This document shows positions 7,903 to 63,834 of a DNA stretch of 64,000 bases, one piece after another. The stretch lies in assembly GCA_033286805.1 (NCBI GenBank), contig GCA_033286805.1_4727.1. One strand, given 5' to 3'. Origin of the DNA: a phage. A program made the position numbers and the translations under genes. Under the pieces are notes generated by a model. The model ran no database searches. It had not been told where the DNA came from and saw only the letters and a program-made list of their open reading frames with translations. Positions within the stretch are counted from its first letter, which is position 1. Each line of letters opens with the position of its first letter.

Positions 7903-7923
7903 AAGCCTCCCATTACGGGAGGC
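7903..7923 (-). terminator. GC-rich hairpin followed by TTTATGCCGTC motif
   Basis: AGCCTCCC-ATTAC-GGGAGGCT stem-loop just after stop of 7937-8485; recurrent motif family. Confidence 0.5.
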
Positions 7924-16962: not shown

Positions 16963-17649
16963 TTAACACATGATTTCACCATGTTTCTTTTCAACATACG
17001 TATAAACGTCATCCAAATAAGCAATGAGTTTATCACGATCCGCACAGAGCGATTTAATCATCGCAATCTCTTTCATATAAAGCTGCTGACCTAACGCCGG
17101 ATAGGTAATCCAAGCGTAGCCGTCAGGCGCAAATTTAGAAATAAGATAATCGGCGGTTTCCTGTAATGCGAACTCTTTGCTCATCTGGCCGTAACGATGT
17201 TCGATTGCACGGATACCAAAACGTTCGCTATCGAGACGACCCATATCCGCCAGACGAAGCACCTGAGAAGCAACAGAACTACGTGGACCAGAGTGCGAGG
17301 CACGATGTTCAGCAATAAGTACGCGTATCTCCTCGATGTCTTCCGGTGTGAAAATATCCTGCTCGTTACGAAGCAGGATAACCGATGCACGAATACCACC
17401 GATAAGGTGGTGGTATGTTCTGTTTTCGTGGCAAGCGATATCATGCATAAAAGCAGCGGTTAATAGACGACGACGTTCCGTGGGTCTGATGATCCCAACC
17501 ACATCAGCAAGTTCATTTGCCAGTTCAACAACAGCAAGCACATGTTCTTCTTGATGTGCAAGATCGTTCTTCCGAATATTTTCAATTACTTCAGCGCGAG
17601 TTTCCTGAGATAAGAAATTTAAACAATCCAACGAATATAAAGATTTCAT
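16963..17649 (-). CDS. HD-domain phosphohydrolase-like protein
   Basis: H...HD...H...D pattern (EEHVLAV ... AAFMHDIACHE); preceded by early-promoter-like motif. Confidence 0.45.
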   Translation of the reverse strand: MKSLYSLDCLNFLSQETRAEVIENIRKNDLAHQEEHVLAVVELANELADVVGIIRPTERRRLLTAAFMHDIACHENRTYHHLIGGIRASVILLRNEQDIFTPEDIEEIRVLIAEHRASHSGPRSSVASQVLRLADMGRLDSERFGIRAIEHRYGQMSKEFALQETADYLISKFAPDGYAWITYPALGQQLYMKEIAMIKSLCADRDKLIAYLDDVYTYVEKKHGEIMC

Positions 17650-17690
17650 CGCACGTACCTCTTTGAATCTATTAATAAATTTTCTTTACT

Positions 17691-17716
17691 CACGTAAGTA
17701 ATATAGCCGTGAAAGG
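17691..17716 (-). promoter_or_regulatory. early-promoter-like motif copy 1
   Basis: Minus-strand TTTCACGGCTATATTACTTACGTG ~48 nt upstream of ATG 17649; four near-identical copies in window. Confidence 0.45.
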
Positions 17717-17793
17717 ATTTGTGTTGGTCCGTTTCGATGCCCATCGTATTTTATGGATTGTCGAATGACGTCATTTTAAGGGACATCCCCGGC

Positions 17794-17827
17794 CTCCTCC
17801 CCAGGAAAGGTGTGGGGAGGAGTTTTT
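17794..17827 (+). terminator. plus-strand hairpin plus T5 run in leader of helicase gene
   Basis: CTCCTCCCC / GGGGAGGAG 9-bp stem followed by TTTTT. Confidence 0.4.
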
Positions 17828-17857
17828 ATCATACATTCTATTAAATCGAGCGCGATT

Positions 17858-19939
17858 ATGTTGGATAGAATCAATCGTTTAATGAACCGAATAACGGTTA
17901 AAAATCAGAGTAACAATACCGTGCATATCGGGGGTATCGATGCCTGGCGTCTTTCAGATGACATTCAGCGAATATGGGGTACCTCCCGATTTATGAAACA
18001 TATGTTTCGTAATTTCTCTTCTAGTGGACTCAGTCTCCACAATTTTTACCTTCCCGATTTCGTTTATATTCTCGAAACGATCATCGAAGCAAAGAATACC
18101 CGCAGTAATAAACGCATGCTGAAACACCTTATTGAGGTACTGCTGCAGGAAACCTGGTTGCAAAATACCACAATCGAGCAACCTGCAATCCTCGATAAAG
18201 CACGCATGAACAAAATGCTAACGCTCTCCCTGTTCGATTATCAAGATGAGTTTATCGACATCTATAACCGTAACGTACCTAAATATCGACTGAAAGGATA
18301 CGTGTGTGCGATGGGTGCGGGTGCTGGTAAAACAATCACCGCATTGGCTTTAAGCGCCGCAATGAACGTCGACGTATTTGTGGTCTGCTGTCCTAAGAAC
18401 ACCATGCGTTCAGCATGGCAATCCGATGTAAACAAAGCCATCGTTGACCCCGCAACAGAAACCGCATTCTGGTCAGATACAATGCCACCATCACAGCTGC
18501 AGAAAAGCGATAAGTATTATTTTCTGCATTACGAGTCGATGGGTTTATTAAACGATGTAATGATCAAGCATAAACGCACCGCGAAGCGAGTTCTTATTGT
18601 TGTTGACGAAAGCCATAACTTCAACGACAAGAACAGCCAACGTTCCCAACGACTGGTTGATCTCGTACAGACGATGCGTCAGACCATGAATGCTGATGTT
18701 CATGTCTTGTTTATGTCGGGTACGCCTGTTAAACAAATGGGTTCTGAGATGATCCCGTGTTTAGGTTGTATTGACCCAATGTTCCAAGGACAGGTGGTCG
18801 ATAGCTTCAAAGCAATTTACGGTTTAACCAGCAGTCGCGCTAACGATATCCTCAGACATCGTCTTGGGTTCATGATGCATGTCGTACCTAAAGAGGCTTA
18901 TCGTAAAACCCGTCCGGAAGTTCAGGACGTTTACGTGAAGCTCCCTAACGGTAGCGATTATACCATCTCAAGTATCCGCGACGACATGGCGATATTTGTA
19001 CGCGATCGGGCAAAGTATTACAAGGATAACTGGGGGCATTACAGAAAGATTTTTGATGACGCCTTGGACTACTATCGTAAGACTATTCGTACCGATGGTG
19101 AACGTAAAGAGCTATCTCGATACGAATCGATTGTTGCTCGTTTCCAGAAAGGTTACGACCCCGTCAGAGACAAAGAAGATGCGATGTTCTGCAACGCGTT
19201 TGAAAAACGTTCCATCATGCCGGTTCTTCCTTCCGATTTAAGGGTTGCTTTCAAAGACGCCAAGAGCGTCATCAAGTACGTTGGGTTGAAAATTCAGGGT
19301 GAAGCGTTGGCACGTGTTCTAGGTGCAGCCCGCATTCGGTGTCATGTCGACATGGTGGAGTACATCGACTTCGAAGGGTACATCAATAACGCCGAAGCCA
19401 AAGTGTTGATCTTCACGTCGTACGTTCAGGTGGTTGAACGCGTCGACAACATGCTTCGTGATGCGGGTTTCTTACCTGAACCCATTTACGGGAAGACCAA
19501 CAAGAACATCAACCAAATACTTGCTCGTCTACGCGATGATCCTGACAGCGGTCCCGCTATCGCAACATTTGATAGCTTAGCTGAAGGGGTTCCGATGCTG
19601 ATGTGTAATGTCGGCCTTTTCCTGAACAATCCATGGCGTTCATCCGATGAAATCCAAGCCATCAGCCGTCTCGATCGTGTAGGGCAAACGCAGCCCGTTC
19701 GGATTTATCGTTTCATGTTGGATACAGGAAGCGAGGGTAACGTTTCTACACGTAGCCACGAAATCATGGAGTTAAGTCGACAGCTTGTTGAAGAAATCAC
19801 GGGTGTCAAATATGTAGTGAACAAGCAAGACGATGTTAACTTGCAAGAAACGTTGGCGATGGAAGGATACGATCAATACGTTACCGTAAACACCACGGAA
19901 TACGATATTAAACCGCGACCTGCATTCTTGGAATGGTGA
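17858..19939 (+). CDS. SF2 (SNF2/DEAD-like) helicase
   Basis: Walker A AMGAGAGKT, DExH box VVDESHN, MSGTP, motif VI QAISRLDRVGQ; track start 17810 is GTG inside hairpin, ATG 17858 preferred. Confidence 0.7.
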   Translation: MLDRINRLMNRITVKNQSNNTVHIGGIDAWRLSDDIQRIWGTSRFMKHMFRNFSSSGLSLHNFYLPDFVYILETIIEAKNTRSNKRMLKHLIEVLLQETWLQNTTIEQPAILDKARMNKMLTLSLFDYQDEFIDIYNRNVPKYRLKGYVCAMGAGAGKTITALALSAAMNVDVFVVCCPKNTMRSAWQSDVNKAIVDPATETAFWSDTMPPSQLQKSDKYYFLHYESMGLLNDVMIKHKRTAKRVLIVVDESHNFNDKNSQRSQRLVDLVQTMRQTMNADVHVLFMSGTPVKQMGSEMIPCLGCIDPMFQGQVVDSFKAIYGLTSSRANDILRHRLGFMMHVVPKEAYRKTRPEVQDVYVKLPNGSDYTISSIRDDMAIFVRDRAKYYKDNWGHYRKIFDDALDYYRKTIRTDGERKELSRYESIVARFQKGYDPVRDKEDAMFCNAFEKRSIMPVLPSDLRVAFKDAKSVIKYVGLKIQGEALARVLGAARIRCHVDMVEYIDFEGYINNAEAKVLIFTSYVQVVERVDNMLRDAGFLPEPIYGKTNKNINQILARLRDDPDSGPAIATFDSLAEGVPMLMCNVGLFLNNPWRSSDEIQAISRLDRVGQTQPVRIYRFMLDTGSEGNVSTRSHEIMELSRQLVEEITGVKYVVNKQDDVNLQETLAMEGYDQYVTVNTTEYDIKPRPAFLEW

Positions 19940-19945
19940 TTAAGA

Positions 19946-19971
19946 AGCTCTGCCTGACATCAGGCAGAGCT
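19946..19971 (+). terminator. palindromic hairpin after helicase gene
   Basis: AGCTCTGCCTG-ACAT-CAGGCAGAGCT. Confidence 0.5.
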
Positions 19972-20038
19972 TCATGCTGTATTTGTTGCAAGATCGTATG
20001 ACGTATATGCGTTGTACTTATTTAATAAGGCAGAATAA

Positions 20039-21490
20039 ATGAAACTTAAACAAAGCTGGAAAGACGAACTTCTCGCGTTAGTAAATAGCAAAAACAGTTT
20101 ACAGCTGACATTAGCCGACGTAAAATTTGAGTTAACTGAACCGGTAAGCGAAGTGCCCGGAACGGTTGTTGTTACGATCAAACCGAACGATGATAGCCGT
20201 TACTTTAACGAGCAGTCTCTGACCTACATTCGTCGAGACATCGCTAAAAACTTCACCGGGATCCCGTTACGGGTTATCGTTAAAAATGATACCGCCGTAA
20301 GGGATATCATCAACACGATCGCTGAACGTTACGGATTGGTATTTGACACAACCGTCGACTTCCTCGAATCCGAACTGAATAAACAAATTACGTTCGAAGA
20401 CACCGGTATTAAAGACATTACGGTTCCGGTTGCAAACACGTCTTATGTTTGGGCTGGTAATCTTCAGTTCAATATCGCTAACGATACGTTGAGCTTGATT
20501 ACGATCATCAAGCAAACCAATCTTACGAATCTGGTTTATCTGGATGGTGTTGAATCTAACACATCGGGTTCGTTACTATTAGCAACGACCTCGGTTATCG
20601 GCGAAAACGGAAATGCCGAAACAACTGAAGGTGTCCTTGACGCCGCGTACTTCCAGAATATCCTGAACGTCATGGTTCGTTATGGTGATATTACCAGCGA
20701 ACAAATGCAACAAGCAATGCAGACAATTAACGGAAGCGAAGACGCTCGTAGAGTAGAGGTGCGGTCATACGGTGACGCCGAATTATTGGTAACCACCAAG
20801 AAAGATTGGGTTATCGGTAGCCTTAAGGGTGCTATGGTTGTTGGTCACGCTTCACCTAAACCAATCCAATACGTTCTTAAAACAAAAGGCGGCACCATTA
20901 TATTGTCATTAGATGGTTGGACAAATGTCAATATCGATTGGGGTGATGGGAATAAGACGACGCAGGACTCCGGCGATAATGAATATCAGCACAATTACGC
21001 GGACACTACAGAACGTACGATCGTCGCTACGGGTACCCCTACCAACGTTGAAGATACAGACGTACAGCAAAGCTTCACCGGTGGTAACATCACTGAAATC
21101 GTTGACTGGAACAACGGATTACCTAAGGCCCCATCATTACTTGCGGCGAACAGTTTAATTAAGGTTCCCGATTATATCCCGGCATACTGGACATCGTTAG
21201 AAGGTATGTTTACGCGATGCAGCGCTATTAACGACGTGAACATCACCAAATGGAACACCCGCAACATTACTTCAATGAAGGACCTCTTCTACGGTTGCGC
21301 TACGTTCAACCAACCGATCGGTTCGTGGGATGTTTCGTCTGTTAAGAATGCAGACAATATGTTGTCTGGGTGCTTCGCGTTCAATCAGGATCTGAGTGGT
21401 TGGACATTCCCGGCAGGCACTTCACACATCAACTACGACGCCATGACCGCCGCATGGCAGGCTGGTTATAAACCACACTTCACCGAGTAA
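20039..21490 (+). CDS. DUF285/BspA-like repeat protein
   Basis: C-terminal repeats MFxxCxxxNxxxxxxWxxxxV x3 (e.g. LFYGCATFNQPIGSWDVSSV); 483 aa. Confidence 0.55.
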   Translation: MKLKQSWKDELLALVNSKNSLQLTLADVKFELTEPVSEVPGTVVVTIKPNDDSRYFNEQSLTYIRRDIAKNFTGIPLRVIVKNDTAVRDIINTIAERYGLVFDTTVDFLESELNKQITFEDTGIKDITVPVANTSYVWAGNLQFNIANDTLSLITIIKQTNLTNLVYLDGVESNTSGSLLLATTSVIGENGNAETTEGVLDAAYFQNILNVMVRYGDITSEQMQQAMQTINGSEDARRVEVRSYGDAELLVTTKKDWVIGSLKGAMVVGHASPKPIQYVLKTKGGTIILSLDGWTNVNIDWGDGNKTTQDSGDNEYQHNYADTTERTIVATGTPTNVEDTDVQQSFTGGNITEIVDWNNGLPKAPSLLAANSLIKVPDYIPAYWTSLEGMFTRCSAINDVNITKWNTRNITSMKDLFYGCATFNQPIGSWDVSSVKNADNMLSGCFAFNQDLSGWTFPAGTSHINYDAMTAAWQAGYKPHFTE

Positions 21491-21513
21491 AAAAAAAAAA
21501 ATAGATAGCATAT

Positions 21514-21546
21514 CTTCCTCCCTACCCATAACGGGCGGGGAGGAAG
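21514..21546. terminator. bidirectional hairpin between convergent genes
   Basis: CTTCCTCCC / GGGAGGAAG stem flanked by A12 upstream and T-rich downstream. Confidence 0.55.
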
Positions 21547-21563
21547 GTTTATGTCAATTTAAT

Positions 21564-21902
21564 TTAGAACCAGAGTTCTTTCATGAGGTAAGCTTCCATA
21601 TCGTAGATAAGCCACTCGTCAGGGATTTCTAAAGGATCGTCTTCGGTTAAGGTCAGCATGTGCAGGGCGAACGCACGCTTAATATCGTTCAGCAGTTTTT
21701 CGTCGTCGTAACCTTCTGGTAGTTTACGGTCTACCAGCTGGGTTTGTTTATAGACATCGCGGAATGCTTCAGGGCTGTGTTTGTCCATCGGAAATTGTTC
21801 AGCAGCCTGAACCATAGAAAGCGTCCAGCTTACAACATTGTAACGCTCACCGTTAATTTCACTGAACTGATCATCGATTAAACAGATTTGTTGTACATTC
21901 AT
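21564..21902 (-). CDS. hypothetical protein
   Basis: 112-aa ORF. Confidence 0.45.
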   Translation of the reverse strand: MNVQQICLIDDQFSEINGERYNVVSWTLSMVQAAEQFPMDKHSPEAFRDVYKQTQLVDRKLPEGYDDEKLLNDIKRAFALHMLTLTEDDPLEIPDEWLIYDMEAYLMKELWF

Positions 21903-22792
21903 TCATTTTCTCCATTCTTATCTTGGTCGCAATCACACTCTTCGACGTCTTTCTTACTTAAACGTAAGACGCCGAGTGCGGCATGCTTGAGTTCTTGCAA
22001 CGCGCTTTTCAGCTGACCTTCTTCATCGAAATCAAAATACTTCTCGTTGTAGCTTAACGCTGGAATCATATTTACGAGAGGTTCGATGGCGGGCATCAGC
22101 ATTTCAATGACGACCTTAGGATCAACAAAGCGTTCGAACCCTTCAGGAAGTTTGCTCGCTACAACCTTATCGTTTTTGATGTAGAATTTGTTCTTGAACA
22201 AATCGTCAAGAATAGCATTCTCTTCATCCGTACGTTTTGCGTGAGGACGATCGATCATCTGCACAAACACATCGCTCAACGCTTCAGGCAACGTCGGATT
22301 TTCACGAAGATAAGTTCCGGCTGGAATTTCAATATCGATCTTCGTCCACTCAACAACCTGGTGGTCTCGCGTATAGATGACGTCAACTTCCCATGCCAGG
22401 CCATCAGCGCTTTCTACGGTGTAACGTGTTTTCGCCTGGCCTTCAGGAGCCATGCGTTCGATCGCGTCAAACATCTCGACTGGGATTTCGACTTCGCTTT
22501 CCGTCGCATCACCTGGACCACGATACACCTTCGTGGTCATGATGTATTTCGGCTCTTCGTTATCGATCTGGATCGCACGTGCGCGCACCTGACCTTTCAC
22601 GCCACCAACGGCCGTGTTATCAAACAACCACTGATGTTGCACCATATGTTCGATTTTTGATGCGACTTGACGAAGACGTTCAACACCGTCTTCAGCCAGT
22701 TTACCAAAGAAGACCAGCTCACGTTCCTGCTGTGTCTCACCACTTAACATCATTAAATTGGCGATTTGTTTCACGCCTCTTACTTGTGACAT
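21899..22792 (-). CDS. hypothetical protein
   Basis: 297-aa ORF. Confidence 0.5.
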   Translation of the reverse strand: MSQVRGVKQIANLMMLSGETQQERELVFFGKLAEDGVERLRQVASKIEHMVQHQWLFDNTAVGGVKGQVRARAIQIDNEEPKYIMTTKVYRGPGDATESEVEIPVEMFDAIERMAPEGQAKTRYTVESADGLAWEVDVIYTRDHQVVEWTKIDIEIPAGTYLRENPTLPEALSDVFVQMIDRPHAKRTDEENAILDDLFKNKFYIKNDKVVASKLPEGFERFVDPKVVIEMLMPAIEPLVNMIPALSYNEKYFDFDEEGQLKSALQELKHAALGVLRLSKKDVEECDCDQDKNGENE

Positions 22793-22860: not shown

Positions 22861-25491
22861 TTACAATTCAAAATCTTCATCGATAACACGCTGGGTAAGC
22901 ACTTTGTCGCTGAAGAACTCCACCTTGCGCTGATGGTATTTACGGTGCGCTTCGATAGAAGTACATACCAGATACCAGAACGTTGGCGTCATTCCTTCAA
23001 ACTTCCCTTTCAGCTGACGCAGTCGTCCCAACACCTGAATGTTGCCGGTTCGTGACCCCATCGCTAACGTCATGAACGTCATCACCAAGTCAGGAAGGTC
23101 GATACCGGTACCTGCCGATTTCACGGTTGTAACGCTAATATCGTTATCCAGCAAGACCATGAAATCTTCTTCAGCAGTATAAGGACCGATCTCTAGCTCA
23201 GGAATACGTTCACTGAGATAATGCGACAACGACTTACACATATCAACGGTTGCACAATACACCAGCATCTTCATACCTTCCTGATACTGGTTCATAAAAC
23301 CTTTGATAATAACGGTATAGATGAAGTTAAAGTACGCGAGTTTGAGTTGCTTGTTCTTCATGATAGACTGTTCAAATATCGTGTGCGAATAAGCTCCACC
23401 AAACCCTTTGTATCTGACTTTATCTGTACTGCGTAGTCGATATGTTACCGCATTTACCGCAATGTATTTCTTGTATTCGCCTTTCGCATAACGGGCTTCT
23501 TTCGGATACATCAAATACAGCATCTGTTCGATAAACGGATCATCGGATACCGCTGTTGCCGACAGATAAATGATTTCCGGAATATTGGCGTAACACTTGA
23601 CCTTAAACAAGAAATGCAATGCTTCGTGACACTCGTCATGAATCAGCAAACCTATGCCGGTCTTTTCCCAAAACTCAGCGGGATGGAAGGCATATGGCGC
23701 AACGCAGTTATTCTTCTCGTAGTCCGCAATATAACGTTGGAACATGTTCAAGGAGAACAATGCGATTTTGAAGTCGAGTTCACCCTGTTCAACCAAGGTT
23801 TGAAACTCCAGCATGCTGTAACGAGGAATGTCGGGATGCGGTGGATCCTCCTTAGCGTTCCCGCGTATCTCGATAACATCCCCTGGTTCCATCCCGAAGA
23901 AGTTCAGCAGCGAGCTTCGCCAACCTGGCATATACCGTGGAGAAAGTATAATGCCTGTGCGCACACCCCGTCTAAACACGATTTCCTGCGACATCGCGGT
24001 GTTGTGTGTGACGATAAAGTCTTTCACCACAAACAACGCTGAAGGATCATCGATCGTAATGCAACGTGCATCCGCAACACGGGAAGGTTTGATTGACAGT
24101 ACACGCAGCATACTTTCGAAGTATTGTCCGTCGACAGGACAACGTTCCAGCTTCTTCGGAAGTGTAACGATTTCATGTGGACGTTTATACCGTATCGTAA
24201 CCATGTACGCCAATCGTCCCTTATGTCTTTCCCCCTTGTAGGTGTAATACGGTTGTTTAATACGTAGACGAGCATATCCACCGATCGAACGAACCAAGTA
24301 GATAACGTCATCTGAAAGCTGTTTGCTCGAAGTACAGAAAACAATAGATCCGCCTTTATCTACCGTTCCGTCGGTATCGATAAGACCTGCAAGTATTTCG
24401 CAACGCTGTCTATGCGACGCCATCATGTACTGTTTCGGAACAAACTTCTCCCAGGCTCGTTTACCCATCAACCCCAACTGATCAAGCGCGGATGCTGTCT
24501 CCGACCGCCCACCGTAATTGATTAACGTTGCGGCAGGCGTCTTCGTTACCGCATAGTCGTATTTGTCACGGTACTGTATTTCACAGTCATCAGGAAGACG
24601 ACTTAACACCTTATTCAAGATGAAATCGTCAGGAGTTGTAATGATTGGAGATGTCGTTAAATGACCGTCCCCTAACAGAACACCAAGCACGTACGGATCA
24701 AGCGGTAAATCTGCATCAGGAGTATCCTCAGACTCACAATACGGAATGTAAAGTCGTTTATTGGACAGCTCCAGGATACGAATCATCTCAAGTGTATTGA
24801 TAACCCGCATGGGATAAGGATTGTTTTTGTCCCATCCCCAGTTAGGTCTCATGCACGCCCAGAGATGCTCGCCGCAGGCTTCAACACGACGACCGTCAGC
24901 AAAGACAATCTCATAGAGCTGTTTTGCTTTATGGTCGAAGATATTGGTTACCTTCGTTGGTCGGCCATTAGCAGCCGTGATGGTATCACCTAGCTTCAAA
25001 TCGCCTAATTGACGCCATCCGCCAGGGACTTTTACGAGCGTGGTAAGCGGATTCGCTTTACCAGACCCCGTTTGAGCGGTGTTTAGGCTCATTCTGAAGG
25101 GGGTATCCTTACCCCCGTTCATGTACTCCAGCCATTCTTGTTGATCTTCACGCCACGGAAACTTCCATTTCTTTACGAACTCCACTTCCTTACCTGGTAC
25201 CGGATCGTGATAAACGATTTCCAACCACTCTTTTCGGATTCCTCGAGAGAAGATAAAATCCAAAAACGATTTCAACTGTTCGCGGAGTAAGTATACCTCG
25301 CTATAATCGCTTCTCGCTGCGGCGTAGGTGTTAATGGTATCGGTGACCATTCTCCGTGTACGAGGGTCGCGTCGTTTCCGTAGATGCAAACAACGGTCTC
25401 GAAGGTAATGGCCAATCAAATGGGCAAATCGAAGTCCGTATCCGCTCAGCCTCATGCCATGCGAGAAGACGTCGATACGAGCTAACTTCAT
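22861..25491 (-). CDS. DExH-box SF2 helicase precursor containing an intein
   Basis: Walker A split as TGSGK|...|TAM; after the insertion: DExH LLIHDECHEA, VKSAGTGIDLPDL, motif VI LGRLRQ; ATGA overlap with upstream gene. Confidence 0.75.
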   Translation of the reverse strand: MKLARIDVFSHGMRLSGYGLRFAHLIGHYLRDRCLHLRKRRDPRTRRMVTDTINTYAAARSDYSEVYLLREQLKSFLDFIFSRGIRKEWLEIVYHDPVPGKEVEFVKKWKFPWREDQQEWLEYMNGGKDTPFRMSLNTAQTGSGKANPLTTLVKVPGGWRQLGDLKLGDTITAANGRPTKVTNIFDHKAKQLYEIVFADGRRVEACGEHLWACMRPNWGWDKNNPYPMRVINTLEMIRILELSNKRLYIPYCESEDTPDADLPLDPYVLGVLLGDGHLTTSPIITTPDDFILNKVLSRLPDDCEIQYRDKYDYAVTKTPAATLINYGGRSETASALDQLGLMGKRAWEKFVPKQYMMASHRQRCEILAGLIDTDGTVDKGGSIVFCTSSKQLSDDVIYLVRSIGGYARLRIKQPYYTYKGERHKGRLAYMVTIRYKRPHEIVTLPKKLERCPVDGQYFESMLRVLSIKPSRVADARCITIDDPSALFVVKDFIVTHNTAMSQEIVFRRGVRTGIILSPRYMPGWRSSLLNFFGMEPGDVIEIRGNAKEDPPHPDIPRYSMLEFQTLVEQGELDFKIALFSLNMFQRYIADYEKNNCVAPYAFHPAEFWEKTGIGLLIHDECHEALHFLFKVKCYANIPEIIYLSATAVSDDPFIEQMLYLMYPKEARYAKGEYKKYIAVNAVTYRLRSTDKVRYKGFGGAYSHTIFEQSIMKNKQLKLAYFNFIYTVIIKGFMNQYQEGMKMLVYCATVDMCKSLSHYLSERIPELEIGPYTAEEDFMVLLDNDISVTTVKSAGTGIDLPDLVMTFMTLAMGSRTGNIQVLGRLRQLKGKFEGMTPTFWYLVCTSIEAHRKYHQRKVEFFSDKVLTQRVIDEDFEL
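24001..25056 (-). mobile_element. intein (352 aa) with LAGLIDADG homing-endonuclease domain, Ala-1 / WCT-type (class 3-like)
   Basis: Begins ANPLTTLVKV after GSGK, ends FIVTHN before T; LLGDGHL and ILAGLIDTDG motifs; block B GEHLW, block F Cys (RCITIDD), Thr before HN. Confidence 0.65.
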
Positions 25492-47780: not shown

Positions 47781-47845
47781 TTGGGATTCCTCTTTTCTTA
47801 AACTTTATTAAATGACGTCATTGAATCAGCTTCTACTCGCTCATT

Positions 47846-48034: not shown

Positions 48035-49129
48035 ATGTTTCGTGTTTTAAATAACCTCCCGCGAACATCATCGGGTGTGCAACCCGTCCCTCAGAAAGAC
48101 TATCTAATACGTGAAGTTCAAAGAAACCTACAGACAATCCAGAACCACTATCAAGGTTTTACCTTCGCGGTTCAGAGCGATCACATCCTTGCATTGCTGC
48201 TCGCACAGCTCCCTATGAGATACGACATCTCAGTACAAACTTACTACGACATGATTCTCGATCTTACGCCAGAATTGGGTAATCGTGTCAAGTTGACAAC
48301 ATCAAGATACGCGGGTAAGTTATTCGACGGTGCTTTCTATCCGGGATTGCACGAAGCTATTATCGCAACCGGTGAAAGTCGTCTTATTTCACGTGATGTT
48401 CTTGACAACTGGCGTAATTGGTCACCAGTTAGAATCGTGACGCACCCATACGCAAATCTTCGTTACATTCCTCTTCACCAAAAGCAGGTTGAAGAAGGAC
48501 GAGGTTTTGCGGTCATTATGGTTGACGTACCTTTATTAGCGCTACAGTATCGAATGTGGTCTTTGGTCATGGGTCATAACGTCGACGGTAAATGGGTGGT
48601 TAAAGAACCGGTTACAAGCTTCCTTGCGAGTTTTCCGTTGGTTAACGTATTATACTCACACAACGATGTTGTTATACGTAATCGTTGTTTGTGGGTATCT
48701 CCGGCTAAGAATCCACTCAAATCACCAATTTACGTTAACGACCTTGATAACGTATTCAGCCAAGTCGTTCTGTCCGTACAGCATCATTTATTACGAAGAA
48801 GACGAAGCTACACCGACATGCTTAAACAGATACCGAGTTTATACGGGGATCAGTACCAAGCAACCCGGATGGGCTATACCGTCGATCTTCGACAAACACG
48901 ATGGGCAAGGGATCTGGGTTGTCTGTCATTATGGCAACAACTCGTCACACTACAAAACGTATCTGAAAGCGTCGGGTTCAGCAGTCAAATCGATAACGAC
49001 CTGTATCGTGCCGCCGACCGAAGTCTAAAAGAAGGTAACTGGGAATCCTCTCCGTTACCTGGCGATTTAAGACGTGAAGTTATCGCACAGGTTGCCGACC
49101 TCTTAAAAATTCTTCCTGCTGGTACATAA
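48035..49129 (+). CDS. hypothetical protein
   Basis: 364-aa plus-strand ORF with GGAG SD; CCGTTTACCATCT motif upstream. Confidence 0.55.
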   Translation: MFRVLNNLPRTSSGVQPVPQKDYLIREVQRNLQTIQNHYQGFTFAVQSDHILALLLAQLPMRYDISVQTYYDMILDLTPELGNRVKLTTSRYAGKLFDGAFYPGLHEAIIATGESRLISRDVLDNWRNWSPVRIVTHPYANLRYIPLHQKQVEEGRGFAVIMVDVPLLALQYRMWSLVMGHNVDGKWVVKEPVTSFLASFPLVNVLYSHNDVVIRNRCLWVSPAKNPLKSPIYVNDLDNVFSQVVLSVQHHLLRRRRSYTDMLKQIPSLYGDQYQATRMGYTVDLRQTRWARDLGCLSLWQQLVTLQNVSESVGFSSQIDNDLYRAADRSLKEGNWESSPLPGDLRREVIAQVADLLKILPAGT

Positions 49130-56784: not shown

Positions 56785-57627
56785 ATGGGTGCTATTGACT
56801 ACAGTGTAGATCGTATCTGTCGTACAATACCGGCAGATATCCTACAGTATTGCTATATCGATCGTTACGACTGGCGTAATCGCTATCCTCGTTCCGTAGA
56901 AGACATCATTACCGATTGGGTAATCCGTAAACGGGTTATCGGCGACATCGATATATACGGGGGACTACAAACCGTTATCCCCCTTGATGATGCCGGTGTC
57001 ACTATCGAAGAAGTCACCATTAACTGTTATGTTTTCCACATCCCGTTGGAAGCCACACAGGGACGTTATATCACGTCTGCATTATCCATTATTTCAGGGA
57101 GCGTGAACAACTACGGAATAAACTATAACGGGCAATGGGGTGCTTTCAACCAAACCCAGTTTCAACGTCAGCTTTGTGGGTGGAACCCTGCAAGCAACAC
57201 GTTACAGCAGGGGATGAACGCGTTCGGTCCTATGAACGTTCTTAGTACAGCCAACGTTGATATCATCGCCCCTAACACCATCATGGTGAACAACGTCACG
57301 CCGGTACAATTTCCCCTGAGCCTACGTTGTTTCCTTGCCCACGATCCGGAACTTACTAACCTCAGCATGGAGGTTTGGAACGACTTCTACAAACTCTGTT
57401 TATACGCCACACAAAGTGACATCTATAACAGAACCGTTATCCGTCTCGATAGAGGTGTTACAGCACAAGGACAAGAAGTCGGTGCATTCAAGGAATACAT
57501 CGATCGCTTTGCCGATGCTGAAAACACATATCAGGAATTCCTCAACGAAACGTGGGCAGGCGTTGCCGCCTGGAACGATCCGCAAACTAAACGTCGCGCC
57601 ATTCGACTACAAACCGGTTACTTCTGA
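56785..57627 (+). CDS. hypothetical protein
   Basis: 280-aa plus-strand ORF, AAGGGG SD. Confidence 0.55.
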   Translation: MGAIDYSVDRICRTIPADILQYCYIDRYDWRNRYPRSVEDIITDWVIRKRVIGDIDIYGGLQTVIPLDDAGVTIEEVTINCYVFHIPLEATQGRYITSALSIISGSVNNYGINYNGQWGAFNQTQFQRQLCGWNPASNTLQQGMNAFGPMNVLSTANVDIIAPNTIMVNNVTPVQFPLSLRCFLAHDPELTNLSMEVWNDFYKLCLYATQSDIYNRTVIRLDRGVTAQGQEVGAFKEYIDRFADAENTYQEFLNETWAGVAAWNDPQTKRRAIRLQTGYF

Positions 57628-61936: not shown

Positions 61937-62484
61937 CTTGTAATCCTTAATTTACCTGAATGAATTATCGTTGACGGGTCCACGACGCGACCGTATTTCG
62001 CGTTACGTAATACACGATGCCCAAAGAAGTCAGCGGTTTCCAAAACAACCGTATAACAACCCAGCTGATGTTGATGTCCCCAAAACCGTTCAATGGGAAT
62101 CCAGCAGGGCGACATGCCTTTGTGTCGCCAATCCGTAACACAACCGAATTCAGCAAACTGTTCAGTAAACCACTCGTCAATATCGGTATCCGTAAAGAGA
62201 AACACGTGGTTTTTAACCAGATAAGCGAACCCAGGATAAAAAAGCTGAGGGTCATCCGGGTCACGGAGATAAACACGAAGTTTGTCTAGCGTACCCTCGA
62301 CAACGATTGTATCGGGTAATCCTGGCGGCGTGAACCGAAGTTGGAAGTTATCCTCGTTTGCCGAGGCGTTAACCAAATACCCCAGTTGAAGGGGTCGATG
62401 CAGTTCGAAAAGGTTAAACGTTAATGCATATTCGATATACTCTAATCCTATATTCATGTCTGGCCTATGTGGTATGGACGGCAT
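61933..62484 (-). CDS. hypothetical protein
   Basis: 183-aa ORF. Confidence 0.5.
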   Translation of the reverse strand: MPSIPHRPDMNIGLEYIEYALTFNLFELHRPLQLGYLVNASANEDNFQLRFTPPGLPDTIVVEGTLDKLRVYLRDPDDPQLFYPGFAYLVKNHVFLFTDTDIDEWFTEQFAEFGCVTDWRHKGMSPCWIPIERFWGHQHQLGCYTVVLETADFFGHRVLRNAKYGRVVDPSTIIHSGKLRITR

Positions 62485-62589
62485 TGCATTGCCTTCCGCG
62501 AGTGTAATCAGGAAGGTAATGTAGGTTTATTTTAATCTCCATTTCGCGATGATATGACAGTCTTTATTACGTTTACCATCTGAGGGAGC

Positions 62590-63834
62590 ATGCTCATGTC
62601 TTCTATTTTACAGGTGTTTAATGCGCATGCGGAAGGCATTGACATCGACGAGTATTTTGTTAATCAGGTTATCCGTTACGCGACACGCTTCCGTACGCAA
62701 GACCAAGAACACATGCGTTTTTTCGGTGGGGTTCTGTTAGGTGTACAGAAAATCCGATTCACAACAAGACATAACGATACATGGTTTTCCGACGTCTTGA
62801 TGATGGATGAAGAAAGCTTACGGCGCGATTTGAGTAAACTGCCCTTCTACAATACGCAGACCAACCGTGTTGCCTCAAACGCCTTTAACCTAAGTTGCTG
62901 TTGGTTGCTTTATGCGATCTTCCACAGCAAACAAATCAAAAAAGAAAAGGTTCGTGAAGCCGGGATGCTTGCAGCAATGCAAGTCCTCCATTATAAATTC
63001 ATTTGTGGTCTGGTAGCACGACGTTATCCTTATAACGCCGATCCGGCTATCGCCATTAAGGCGTACGATGAGTTAACACTCAAATCAGGCATCAAGCGCA
63101 TGAATAGCTGGAATGAGTACATCGACGAACGCTGTAACGCCATCATCGCGCGTAATAGTACACATTTCAGTCGTTGGTCAACCCTGGAACCTGATAGCGT
63201 CGCCGAACGTTTTGTGCGTGATGTGAATACCGGAATCCGTAAGGTTATCAACCGTATCACCGATACGTACTACGCGATGTACGAAGAAGGTAAGAAGATA
63301 GGCACGTCTTCTCAAACTGTAGAATTAGACGATGGTCTCGCTGTCCGCGATATTAAACGCAACGAAACCACTTATCGTCAATATCTGTTCGAAATCGCTT
63401 ATGACCGAACGAGTTTCGTTAAACGTGAACTCATGATCGTCATCCTCGACGTGCATCATACTACCAATCTTTTATCCCTTGAGCGAGCGTTAAGCTATAT
63501 CAGCGCTAACGTAGAACGACCGACAAGAGACGGAAAACAGGTCTCTCAGATGTTGCGGCTTGTAATGGAGCATGCTATCGAGTATATCATCTTGAATAAG
63601 GTCGATATGCGCGATCTTACGTTCTTATTCTACATGCGTAACGTGTACACGTCTAACCGCACTAGCAACCCGAAACTGTTAGAACTGCGTAAAATTGGCT
63701 CTGAAGTCATTAAGAAAGCAACCAATGCGAGAAACGACGCTGAAGCTGCAGCGACACGTACTGGTGTCTTTCTGTATATCCTACTTCGTGTGTTTAGCCG
63801 TAACTATTACGTTCGACGTGCGATGTCACGTTAA
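62590..63834 (+). CDS. hypothetical protein
   Basis: 414-aa plus-strand ORF; GAGGGAG SD; CGTTTACCATC motif upstream. Confidence 0.55.
   Translation: MLMSSILQVFNAHAEGIDIDEYFVNQVIRYATRFRTQDQEHMRFFGGVLLGVQKIRFTTRHNDTWFSDVLMMDEESLRRDLSKLPFYNTQTNRVASNAFNLSCCWLLYAIFHSKQIKKEKVREAGMLAAMQVLHYKFICGLVARRYPYNADPAIAIKAYDELTLKSGIKRMNSWNEYIDERCNAIIARNSTHFSRWSTLEPDSVAERFVRDVNTGIRKVINRITDTYYAMYEEGKKIGTSSQTVELDDGLAVRDIKRNETTYRQYLFEIAYDRTSFVKRELMIVILDVHHTTNLLSLERALSYISANVERPTRDGKQVSQMLRLVMEHAIEYIILNKVDMRDLTFLFYMRNVYTSNRTSNPKLLELRKIGSEVIKKATNARNDAEAAATRTGVFLYILLRVFSRNYYVRRAMSR

Follow-up and report, generated by a model that had tools for sequence, protein, structure and literature searches.

The window analysed here is a 64,000-nucleotide (nt) stretch of phage DNA (NCBI GenBank assembly GCA_033286805.1, contig GCA_033286805.1_4727.1), and the subject is a plus-strand pair of genes within it, together with the hairpins that precede, separate and follow them (positions 17,794 to 21,546). 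This stretch is most probably the gp160-gp161 unit of a Goslar-like chimallivirus, a jumbo phage that infects enterobacteria: a middle or late unit that depends on the phage nucleus and is encoded opposite in strand to the early operons on its two sides. Escherichia phage vB_EcoM_Goslar is a nucleus-forming jumbo phage of the Chimalliviridae. Window positions 17600-21700 align with Goslar 142695-146791 over the whole 4.1 kb at 97.2% nucleotide identity, and the Goslar counterparts of 17858-21490 are gp160 and gp161. Annotation of the locus exists already, and publications on Goslar, RAY and phiKZ explain most of it. A possible RNA derived from the 5' untranslated region (UTR) of gp160 is the sole element at the locus so far undescribed for Goslar.

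The assignment to a timing class draws on published RNA-seq of Goslar, in which chimallin knockdown was compared with a control at 30 min post infection (supplementary table 2 of bioRxiv 10.1101/2023.09.20.558163). Transcripts of gp160 and gp161 fall steeply in the knockdown (log2 changes of -5.1, -5.3 and -5.8 for gp160 and of -5.3, -6.1 and -4.8 for gp161), while those of the flanking genes change by +0.7 to +1.1 (gp157-159) and +0.25 to +0.5 (gp162-164). Control infections yield ~1,060-1,310 raw reads for gp160 and similar numbers for gp161, and early-arrested infections only 6-21 reads for the two genes against ~320-370 for gp159. The knockdown arrests infection at the early vesicle stage, in which, as that study infers, the injected virion RNA polymerase alone is active (10.1101/2023.09.20.558163). 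Because both genes collapse in the knockdown while the flanking minus-strand genes do not, gp160-gp161 is taken as a middle/late unit between two early operons, and it would be transcribed by the non-virion RNA polymerase. In the portion of the same table that was covered, the plus-strand genes gp5, gp6, gp7, gp13, gp23, gp30, gp36 and gp43 are all nucleus-dependent.

The early promoter of the HD-hydrolase operon, which marks the left boundary of the unit (Table 1), is invariant in the nine genomes compared. The early motif, TTTCAsGGyTATATTACyTAnGTGA, has eight copies in Goslar, all on the minus strand and one of them upstream of chimallin; within the window, copies of the core TATATTAC start at 17698, 36753, 42032 and 47853, again always on the minus strand. 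To the right, the counterparts of gp162 (112 amino acids, aa) and gp163 (297 aa) at 21564-22792 (minus strand) are of the early class and unaffected by the chimallin knockdown. The Goslar virion mass-spectrometry table lists ~127 copies of gp162 and ~45 of gp163, which are either early-made packaged proteins or carry-over like chimallin.

The preliminary description of this DNA, made from its letters alone, had recognized a plus-strand stretch of two genes among minus-strand genes, and the two open reading frames (ORFs) indeed have minus-strand genes on both sides. Elsewhere the window is mostly minus-strand, with three further genes on the plus strand (48035-49129, 56785-57627 and 62590-63834); it also encodes chimallin, RNA polymerase subunits and a divergent family-B DNA polymerase. 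The word island, used in that description, is apt for orientation and timing but not for composition: the G+C content of the unit (0.446-0.459) equals that of its surroundings, and the skews alone change, with the coding strand. Judged by base composition, which shows no deviation, a foreign origin is rejected. Known RNA families and tRNAs were not found within 17600-21650. Matches to sigma-70 promoters number 13 against 15.9 expected, a count that is uninformative because these phages use their own polymerases.

Table 1. Features of the gp160-gp161 unit and its borders (window coordinates).
Feature	Position	Strand	Remarks
Early (virion RNA polymerase type) promoter of the HD-hydrolase operon, left boundary	17690-17722	-	core TATATTAC at 17698-17705
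TATG, candidate late promoter	17752-17755	+	G17755 as +1, by the phiKZ rule
Perfect palindrome ATGACGTCAT in the putative leader	17765-17774		+11 to +20
Leader hairpin and T5 run, terminator-like	17794-17822; T5 17823-17827	+	10-base-pair (bp) stem CTCCTCCCCA/TGGGGAGGAG; ends 30 nt before the helicase ATG
SNF2-family ATPase/helicase, 693 aa (Goslar gp160)	17858-19939	+	Pfam; phrog_62, E 1.1e-88
Terminator hairpin after the helicase gene (putative)	19944-19973, with tail to 19981	+	13-bp stem, tail TTCATGCTG
Two TATG motifs, candidate gp161 late promoter(s)	19997-20000 and 20006-20009	+	39 and 30 nt before the gp161 ATG
DUF7941-leucine-rich repeat (LRR) virion protein, 483 aa (Goslar gp161 counterpart)	20039-21490	+	
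DUF7941 module	20048-20665 (aa 4-209)	+	PF25613
Beta-rich middle domain	~aa 238-358	+	
DUF285/PARCEL LRR region	~aa 340-483	+	Pfam match aa 385-456 (21191-21406)
Convergent terminator (putative)	21489-21548	both	A13 21489-21501; small hairpin 21503-21515; main hairpin 21512-21548; plus-strand tail TTTATGTC

The product of the first gene passes the Pfam cut-offs of ResIII (47.4 bits; cut-off 22.5), SNF2-rel_dom (31.9; 24.9) and Helicase_C (30.1; 23.5). The two RecA-like lobes of an SNF2-family ATPase thus pass the SNF2-rel_dom and Helicase_C thresholds, and the catalytic motifs are intact in the translation: GAGAGKT (Walker A), DESH, SGTP and QAISRLDRVGQ (motif VI, QxxxRxxRxGQ). When the C-terminal lobe is compared with PDB sequences, the best matches are all SNF2-type remodellers (SWR1, ISWI, SNF2 and Rad54-type chains). 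The SF2 helicase first proposed is therefore confirmed, and, because its relatives of solved structure are by sequence all SNF2-type remodellers, SNF2-family ATPase is the more exact name. The protein is 99.1% identical to Goslar gp160. Full-length relatives, among them RAY gp131 and phiKZ gp203, occur in 202 of the 205 matching phage records (coverage 90-100%, E 1e-84 to 1e-150), all from large phages of the phiKZ-like group and with one match per genome; a scan of viral contigs with the same protein returned two near-identical Goslar genomes only. The start codon, originally placed at GTG 17810, has to be moved to ATG 17858. Single-base indels between the hairpin and the ATG break the GTG frame in relatives, independent gene calls on relatives give a protein of 693 aa, and in many relatives the alignment begins at residue 1 of the protein started at the ATG.

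Mass spectrometry of the Goslar virion gives ~10.6 copies of gp160 per particle. Its RAY relative, gp131, is annotated as a virion-associated SWI/SNF helicase, and a green fluorescent protein fusion of it localises with capsids (PMC10299810). The annotation of phiKZ gp203 bears the note "structural protein", with two virion structural genes following it, and the relatives in OBP, N1M2 and AP1 are annotated as virion-associated SNF2 helicases. Packaging is made less certain by chimallin, which is present in the same mass-spectrometry set at ~126 copies, so that low-copy entries such as gp160 could be carry-over. In the preferred reading, gp160 would be a double-stranded DNA translocase that enters the cell together with the virion RNA polymerase and, acting like RapA or a remodeller, may assist early transcription on a genome newly ejected and laden with protein. 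Bacterial RapA and poxvirus NPH-I/VETF are SNF2-like ATPases that act together with a multisubunit RNA polymerase or are packaged alongside one. The resemblance lies in the pairing, within one virus, of an SNF2-type ATPase with a packaged multisubunit RNA polymerase of viral origin (cf. Iyer et al., PMC7824862); it is an analogy only. Iyer et al. proposed the RapA-like role not for gp160 but for another helicase, which is Rad25-like and lies beside RNA polymerase genes (PMC7824862). Its window counterpart, the Rad25-like SF2 helicase beside the RNA polymerase beta gene (22861-25491, minus strand), carries a 352-aa LAGLIDADG intein in its Walker A motif, between GSGK and T. This intein is absent from Goslar gp164 (524 aa); its presence and type vary between genomes, as the relatives have versions of 524, 753 or 876 aa.

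The key to gp161 is the chimallivirus-specific DUF7941 module, not a link with mycoplasmas. The DUF7941 profile (PF25613) matches with 88.1 bits against a cut-off of 27 (E 8.9e-25) over profile positions 5-216 of 276, so that gp161 appears to be without the C-terminal globular part of the family, which is also missing from gp23 (bioRxiv 10.64898/2026.04.21.720040). This N-terminal domain, the more informative one, had been overlooked in the preliminary description, which named the C-terminal DUF285 repeats; these do exist (PF03382, 77.7 bits against a cut-off of 25, E 7.9e-22), the match covering three canonical repeats. The repeats are ~25-26 residues long and can be read as three canonical MFxxCxxFNQ..W units plus one or two degenerate ones, and the score for the PARCEL repeat TIGR02167 is barely above its threshold (30.3 bits; cut-off 30). 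In the predicted structure, the C-terminal part adopts an LRR solenoid fold, with TpLRR (6mlx) and BACOVA_04585 (4fs7) as top structural matches; the single-chain model has low confidence for aa 64-175, and a sequence search of gp161 against the PDB gave no match. The protein matches phrog_1037, "virion structural protein", and identity to Goslar gp161 (YP_009820846) is 96.3% by tblastn. To regard DUF285 as a mycoplasma-type feature, as was done at first, is misleading. In tblastn the whole protein matches 115 phage records, among them those of cyanophages, Lak megaphages and jumbo phages of Vibrio and Aeromonas; the listed matches fall mostly in the C-terminal DUF285 part, so that DUF285 is common in large phages. 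With the BspA/TpLRR (DUF285/PARCEL) surface proteins of Mycoplasma, Listeria and Bacteroides gp161 shares ~25-residue MFxxCxxFNxxIxxW repeats and a predicted LRR solenoid; unlike them, it has few repeats, fused to a phage virion module and without a signal peptide or lipobox context.

Basu et al. (bioRxiv 10.64898/2026.04.21.720040) list gp161, as DUF7941 plus LRR, among ten Goslar DUF7941 proteins, of which gp86, gp92 and gp161 add carbohydrate-binding, glycoside hydrolase or LRR domains, and they report DUF7941 from chimalliviruses only. In the same preprint gp22 forms filaments in negative-stain electron microscopy, phiKZ gp126-gp127 is modelled, virion mass spectrometry gives ~111 copies of gp161 per virion, and a fibre "cloud" of head-to-tail DUF7941 filaments, anchored on the peripheral baseplate and bearing host-binding domains, is proposed to serve host recognition. 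The window protein has the order of the Goslar protein, DUF7941 and then LRR, at the same genomic position; it is an allelic variant of gp161, and within the family filaments have been demonstrated for gp22 alone. Among 14 Goslar-like counterparts, residues 1-160 are 94-99% conserved but residues 180-483 only 57-79%, and in two related genomes gp161 is 59.5% and 69.8% identical where the neighbouring proteins reach 88-98%. Judged by these identities, gp161 is a local divergence hot-spot with change concentrated in its C-terminal half. A role in receptor binding and host range is plausible for gp161, since such proteins are usually recognised by a constant part for attachment linked to a distal module that varies. 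The N-terminal DUF7941 module would plug into head-to-tail DUF7941 filaments hung from the peripheral baseplate, and the variable beta-domain and DUF285-type LRR solenoid would bind a ligand on the host surface and so determine host range. Other Goslar-like phages carry, within their tail-fibre module, a 584-aa DUF7941+DUF285 paralogue (L005/L006 6001-7755) flanked by genes like gp92 and gp91 and adjacent to a tail fibre gene with Peptidase_S74; Goslar is without it and has just a 205-nt gap at that position.

The helicase also has its relatives in similar surroundings. RAY gp131, phiKZ gp203 and the OBP and N1M2 proteins are full-length relatives at 31-39% identity, and capsid or virion association has been reported for the group of RAY gp131 and phiKZ gp203. 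In RAY, gp131 and one further same-strand gene (a hypothetical protein) form a strand-switched pair; in phiKZ, gp203 points away from the genes upstream of it, and two virion structural genes on the same strand come next. The downstream partner differs: a DUF7941-LRR gene here, gp130 in RAY, and gp202 and gp201 in phiKZ. The strand-switched helicase arrangement is old. Near-complete Goslar-like genomes (contigs of 235-245 kb; homologues P0001-P0056) lie inside assemblies labelled E. coli, Salmonella, Shigella and Enterobacter, which suggests that Goslar-like lytic phages are often sequenced together with isolates.

The three hairpins of the unit resemble, by analogy with mapped cases, intrinsic terminators in the chimallivirus style. 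In phiKZ, 61 terminators mapped by ONT-cappable-seq gave the consensus BCCYCCCCHWWDGGGRRGGBYTTATKYYGT (PMC10914365). Goslar has at least 25 intergenic hairpins with a pyrimidine-rich 5' arm, a purine-rich 3' arm and TTATGCYGT directly after, a pattern that at the sequence level equals the phiKZ consensus. Since the window hairpins match this consensus, the terminator motif is common to phiKZ and Goslar-like phages, which share pyrimidine and purine arms followed by TTAT. Intergenic terminator hairpins with CCTCC/GGAGG-type arms lie in the window at 7903, 9502, 15875, 28240, 29100, 32124, 42897, 45835 and 55470; the arms resemble anti-Shine-Dalgarno and Shine-Dalgarno sequences, and a TTAT-type tail comes after most of these hairpins, in several cases as the complete TTATGCYG. 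Two of the three hairpins of the unit, the leader hairpin with its T5 run and the terminal one (then placed at 21514-21546), had been picked out in the preliminary description and are present; the one between the genes had been missed. The Goslar GenBank record already annotates the leader and middle hairpins as putative terminators.

The middle hairpin is stable (-26.7 kcal/mol, z -4.5 against shuffles). In the nine genomes 97% of its cells are paired, and three of them have a compensatory change of U-A to C-G. Its stem GAAGCTCTGCC does not fit CCYCCCC/GGGRRGG, and its tail TTCATGCTGT has one mismatch to TTATKYYGT; the canonical tail of the family, TTTATGCYG, is present in seven of the nine genomes. 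This hairpin would end the helicase transcripts, and gp161 probably has a late promoter of its own, because TATG motifs lie just after the hairpin, TATG is the late promoter in phiKZ, and TATG[AG] is enriched in Goslar. At least one of the two motifs upstream of gp161 is kept in each of the nine genomes, and TATGAC also stands upstream of the Goslar tail sheath gene and gp211. The main hairpin of the terminal structure folds strongly on both strands (-29.8 kcal/mol, z -6.2 on the plus strand; -26.1, z -4.4 on the minus strand), and 98% of its cells are paired in the nine genomes, with no covariation. Its stem CTTCCTCCC/GGGAGGAAG fits CCYCCCC/GGGRRGG, and its tail TTTATGTCAA is mismatched at the last two positions. 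Next to it on the minus strand come a second, small hairpin and a run of T13; because of this run, the structure probably ends both the plus-strand unit and the converging early operon, and it would thus separate the late unit from that operon. The RAY helicase unit ends with the same design, an A-run and a GGAGG/CCTCC stem and then TTATGCCGT.

The leader hairpin is weaker (-20.6 kcal/mol), and its z of only -1.7 against shuffles is explained by a local sequence rich in C and G; the chance expectation of the pattern CCTCCCC-N-GGGGAGG in the window is 0.00. A simple terminator scan did not list it because its loop exceeds the 3-8 nt limit of that scan. A search of the leader for an alternative, antiterminator fold gave nothing convincing. 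The stem, CCTCCCC/GGGGAGG, fits the phiKZ consensus CCYCCCC/GGGRRGG. All of its cells (100%) are paired in the nine genomes, with one compensatory change of A-U to G-C in two of them. As no T-rich tail follows on the minus strand, the hairpin is a plus-strand element. Upstream by 39 nt lies the only plus-strand TATG of the 208-nt divergent region between the start of the HD gene and the helicase ATG. In phiKZ, TATG is the late promoter and its G the start site (PMC4666361). By this rule, the hairpin and T5 run would occupy +40 to +73 (stem-loop +40 to +68) of a 103-nt leader. In oriented Goslar upstream regions TATG[AG] is observed 42 times against 19 expected, and 24 times on the antisense strand. 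The 76-nt block from TATG through T5 is invariant in the nine genomes except for the compensatory A-U to G-C pair and a 2-nt insertion, while the intergenic sequence on either side varies. The putative leader also contains the palindrome ATGACGTCAT, which has exactly two copies in the window (17765-17774 and 47812-47821), both in divergent regions with an early promoter, between HD and helicase genes and between chimallin and gp190-like genes; Goslar has three copies genome-wide, of which two are intergenic. The palindrome may serve a regulator as its binding site; the copies are too few for a role to be assigned.

That the leader hairpin is a premature terminator is a claim we hold nearly balanced, leaning slightly towards doubt. 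Most likely lying within the 5' UTR of gp160, it would stop a fraction of the transcripts prematurely, which would yield a ~70-nt RNA and restrict the dosage of the helicase. The precedent is terminator T102 in the 5' UTR of PHIKZ221, which aborts more than 90% of transcripts and yields a 71-nt RNA confirmed by northern blot; 201phi2-1 has eight small RNAs derived from 5' UTRs (PMC11512511). As in these cases, the hairpin stands between a putative TATG start and an ORF, and the predicted length is close to that of the T102 RNA. Same-strand hairpins with T-rich tails are also found in the divergent leaders of Goslar gp13, gp211 and gp232, and in that of gp23, the most abundant DUF7941 protein, a hairpin follows directly after TATG, starting at its G. 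In the gp211 region of the window, a second leader hairpin (62484-62524, plus strand; tail GTTTATTTTAAT) lies upstream of the gene at 62590-63834. This hairpin and those of gp13 and gp232 are all without the canonical TTATGCYGT tail. A more elaborate version, which we regard as speculative and rather doubtful, makes the leader hairpin a conditional terminator that turns most initiations at TATG 17752-55 into a ~70-nt RNA carrying ATGACGTCAT and so sets a low dosage of a packaged SNF2 ATPase, as one of a distinct Goslar class of T-rich-tail leader hairpins at plus-strand late genes (gp13, gp160, gp211, gp232).

Several observations weigh against termination in the leader. Its tail TTTTTATCATAC has TTAT but agrees at only one of the five KYYGT positions, and the distal GCYGT of canonical terminators is absent; the hairpin further differs from phiKZ-type terminators in its longer loop and T5 run, and termination, measured in phiKZ, is predicted here from sequence. 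The TATG start rule is borrowed from mapping in phiKZ, and the enrichment in Goslar upstream regions is only about two-fold. Covariation is thin, with one compensatory pair each in the leader and middle hairpins. The gp160 mRNA is about as abundant as that of gp161 at 30 min (10.1101/2023.09.20.558163), so any attenuation must be partial. No obvious hairpin precedes the RAY helicase, and the divergent-region hairpin of phiKZ has its canonical tail in the other orientation, with TATGAC downstream of it; the leader arrangement is therefore not conserved across genera.

The same hairpin could instead be an insulator that stops stray plus-strand transcription, antisense to the early HD operon or from spurious starts in the AT-rich region of the early promoter, before it reaches the late genes, with the helicase promoter lying downstream. 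The near silence of gp160 and gp161 in the early-arrested infection (6-21 reads against ~320-370 for gp159) is consistent with this, as is the finding that 9% of the mapped phiKZ terminators are antisense to genes (PMC10914365). The candidate TATGAC of phiKZ gp203 lies downstream of the divergent-region hairpins, and in the gp211 region, too, TATGAC comes after the hairpin. Here, however, the stretch from the hairpin to the helicase ATG contains no TATG; gp145, the closest plus-strand gene upstream in Goslar (~8 kb away), has a terminator of its own; and the invariant block spans TATG through the hairpin, suggesting one functional unit. An insulator is thus possible, if rather unlikely. Less likely again is an RNA-stability or processing element that shields the late helicase mRNA from 5'-end-dependent decay. 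Such an element would suit the same-strand leader hairpins at gp13, gp23, gp211 and gp232, among which that of gp23 begins at the G of TATG, and a helicase mRNA that is not scarce. The gp160 hairpin, by contrast, begins ~40 nt from the putative start and so is not 5'-terminal, it is followed by a terminator-like T5 run, and its stem composition is that of mapped terminators.

For the unit as a whole, the rival would be a horizontally acquired, moron-like cassette that brings in a bacterial-type BspA surface protein rather than virion machinery. Its opposite strand and flanking hairpins invite this comparison, phiKZ opposite-strand single-gene units have been discussed as moron-like, and DUF285 repeats spread horizontally across bacteria, archaea and phages. 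Nevertheless, the G+C content matches the surroundings, the helicase has the same strand-switched arrangement in RAY and phiKZ, and gp161 is detected in virions. Its N-terminal half is DUF7941, reported only from chimalliviruses and 94-99% conserved, and only C-terminal domains look exchangeable. A cassette of this kind is accordingly very improbable, and a nucleus-dependent unit native to the family is the preferred interpretation.

The unit is ordinary for its phage family, and little rests on this locus alone. The Goslar record already annotates both genes and two of the three hairpins, a description of gp161 as a virion protein of DUF7941-LRR type exists, and virion association is reported for helicase relatives. 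The unit is nonetheless a clear example of interleaved timing classes in chimalliviruses, a nucleus-dependent late unit fenced by family-specific terminators between early operons. In gp161, the near-invariant attachment module and variable LRR half fit a host-range module, and this makes gp161 a practical place at which to engineer the host range of Goslar-like phages. Should the leader RNA prove real, small RNAs from 5' UTRs, known from the Pseudomonas phages phiKZ and 201phi2-1, would be extended to a chimallivirus of E. coli.

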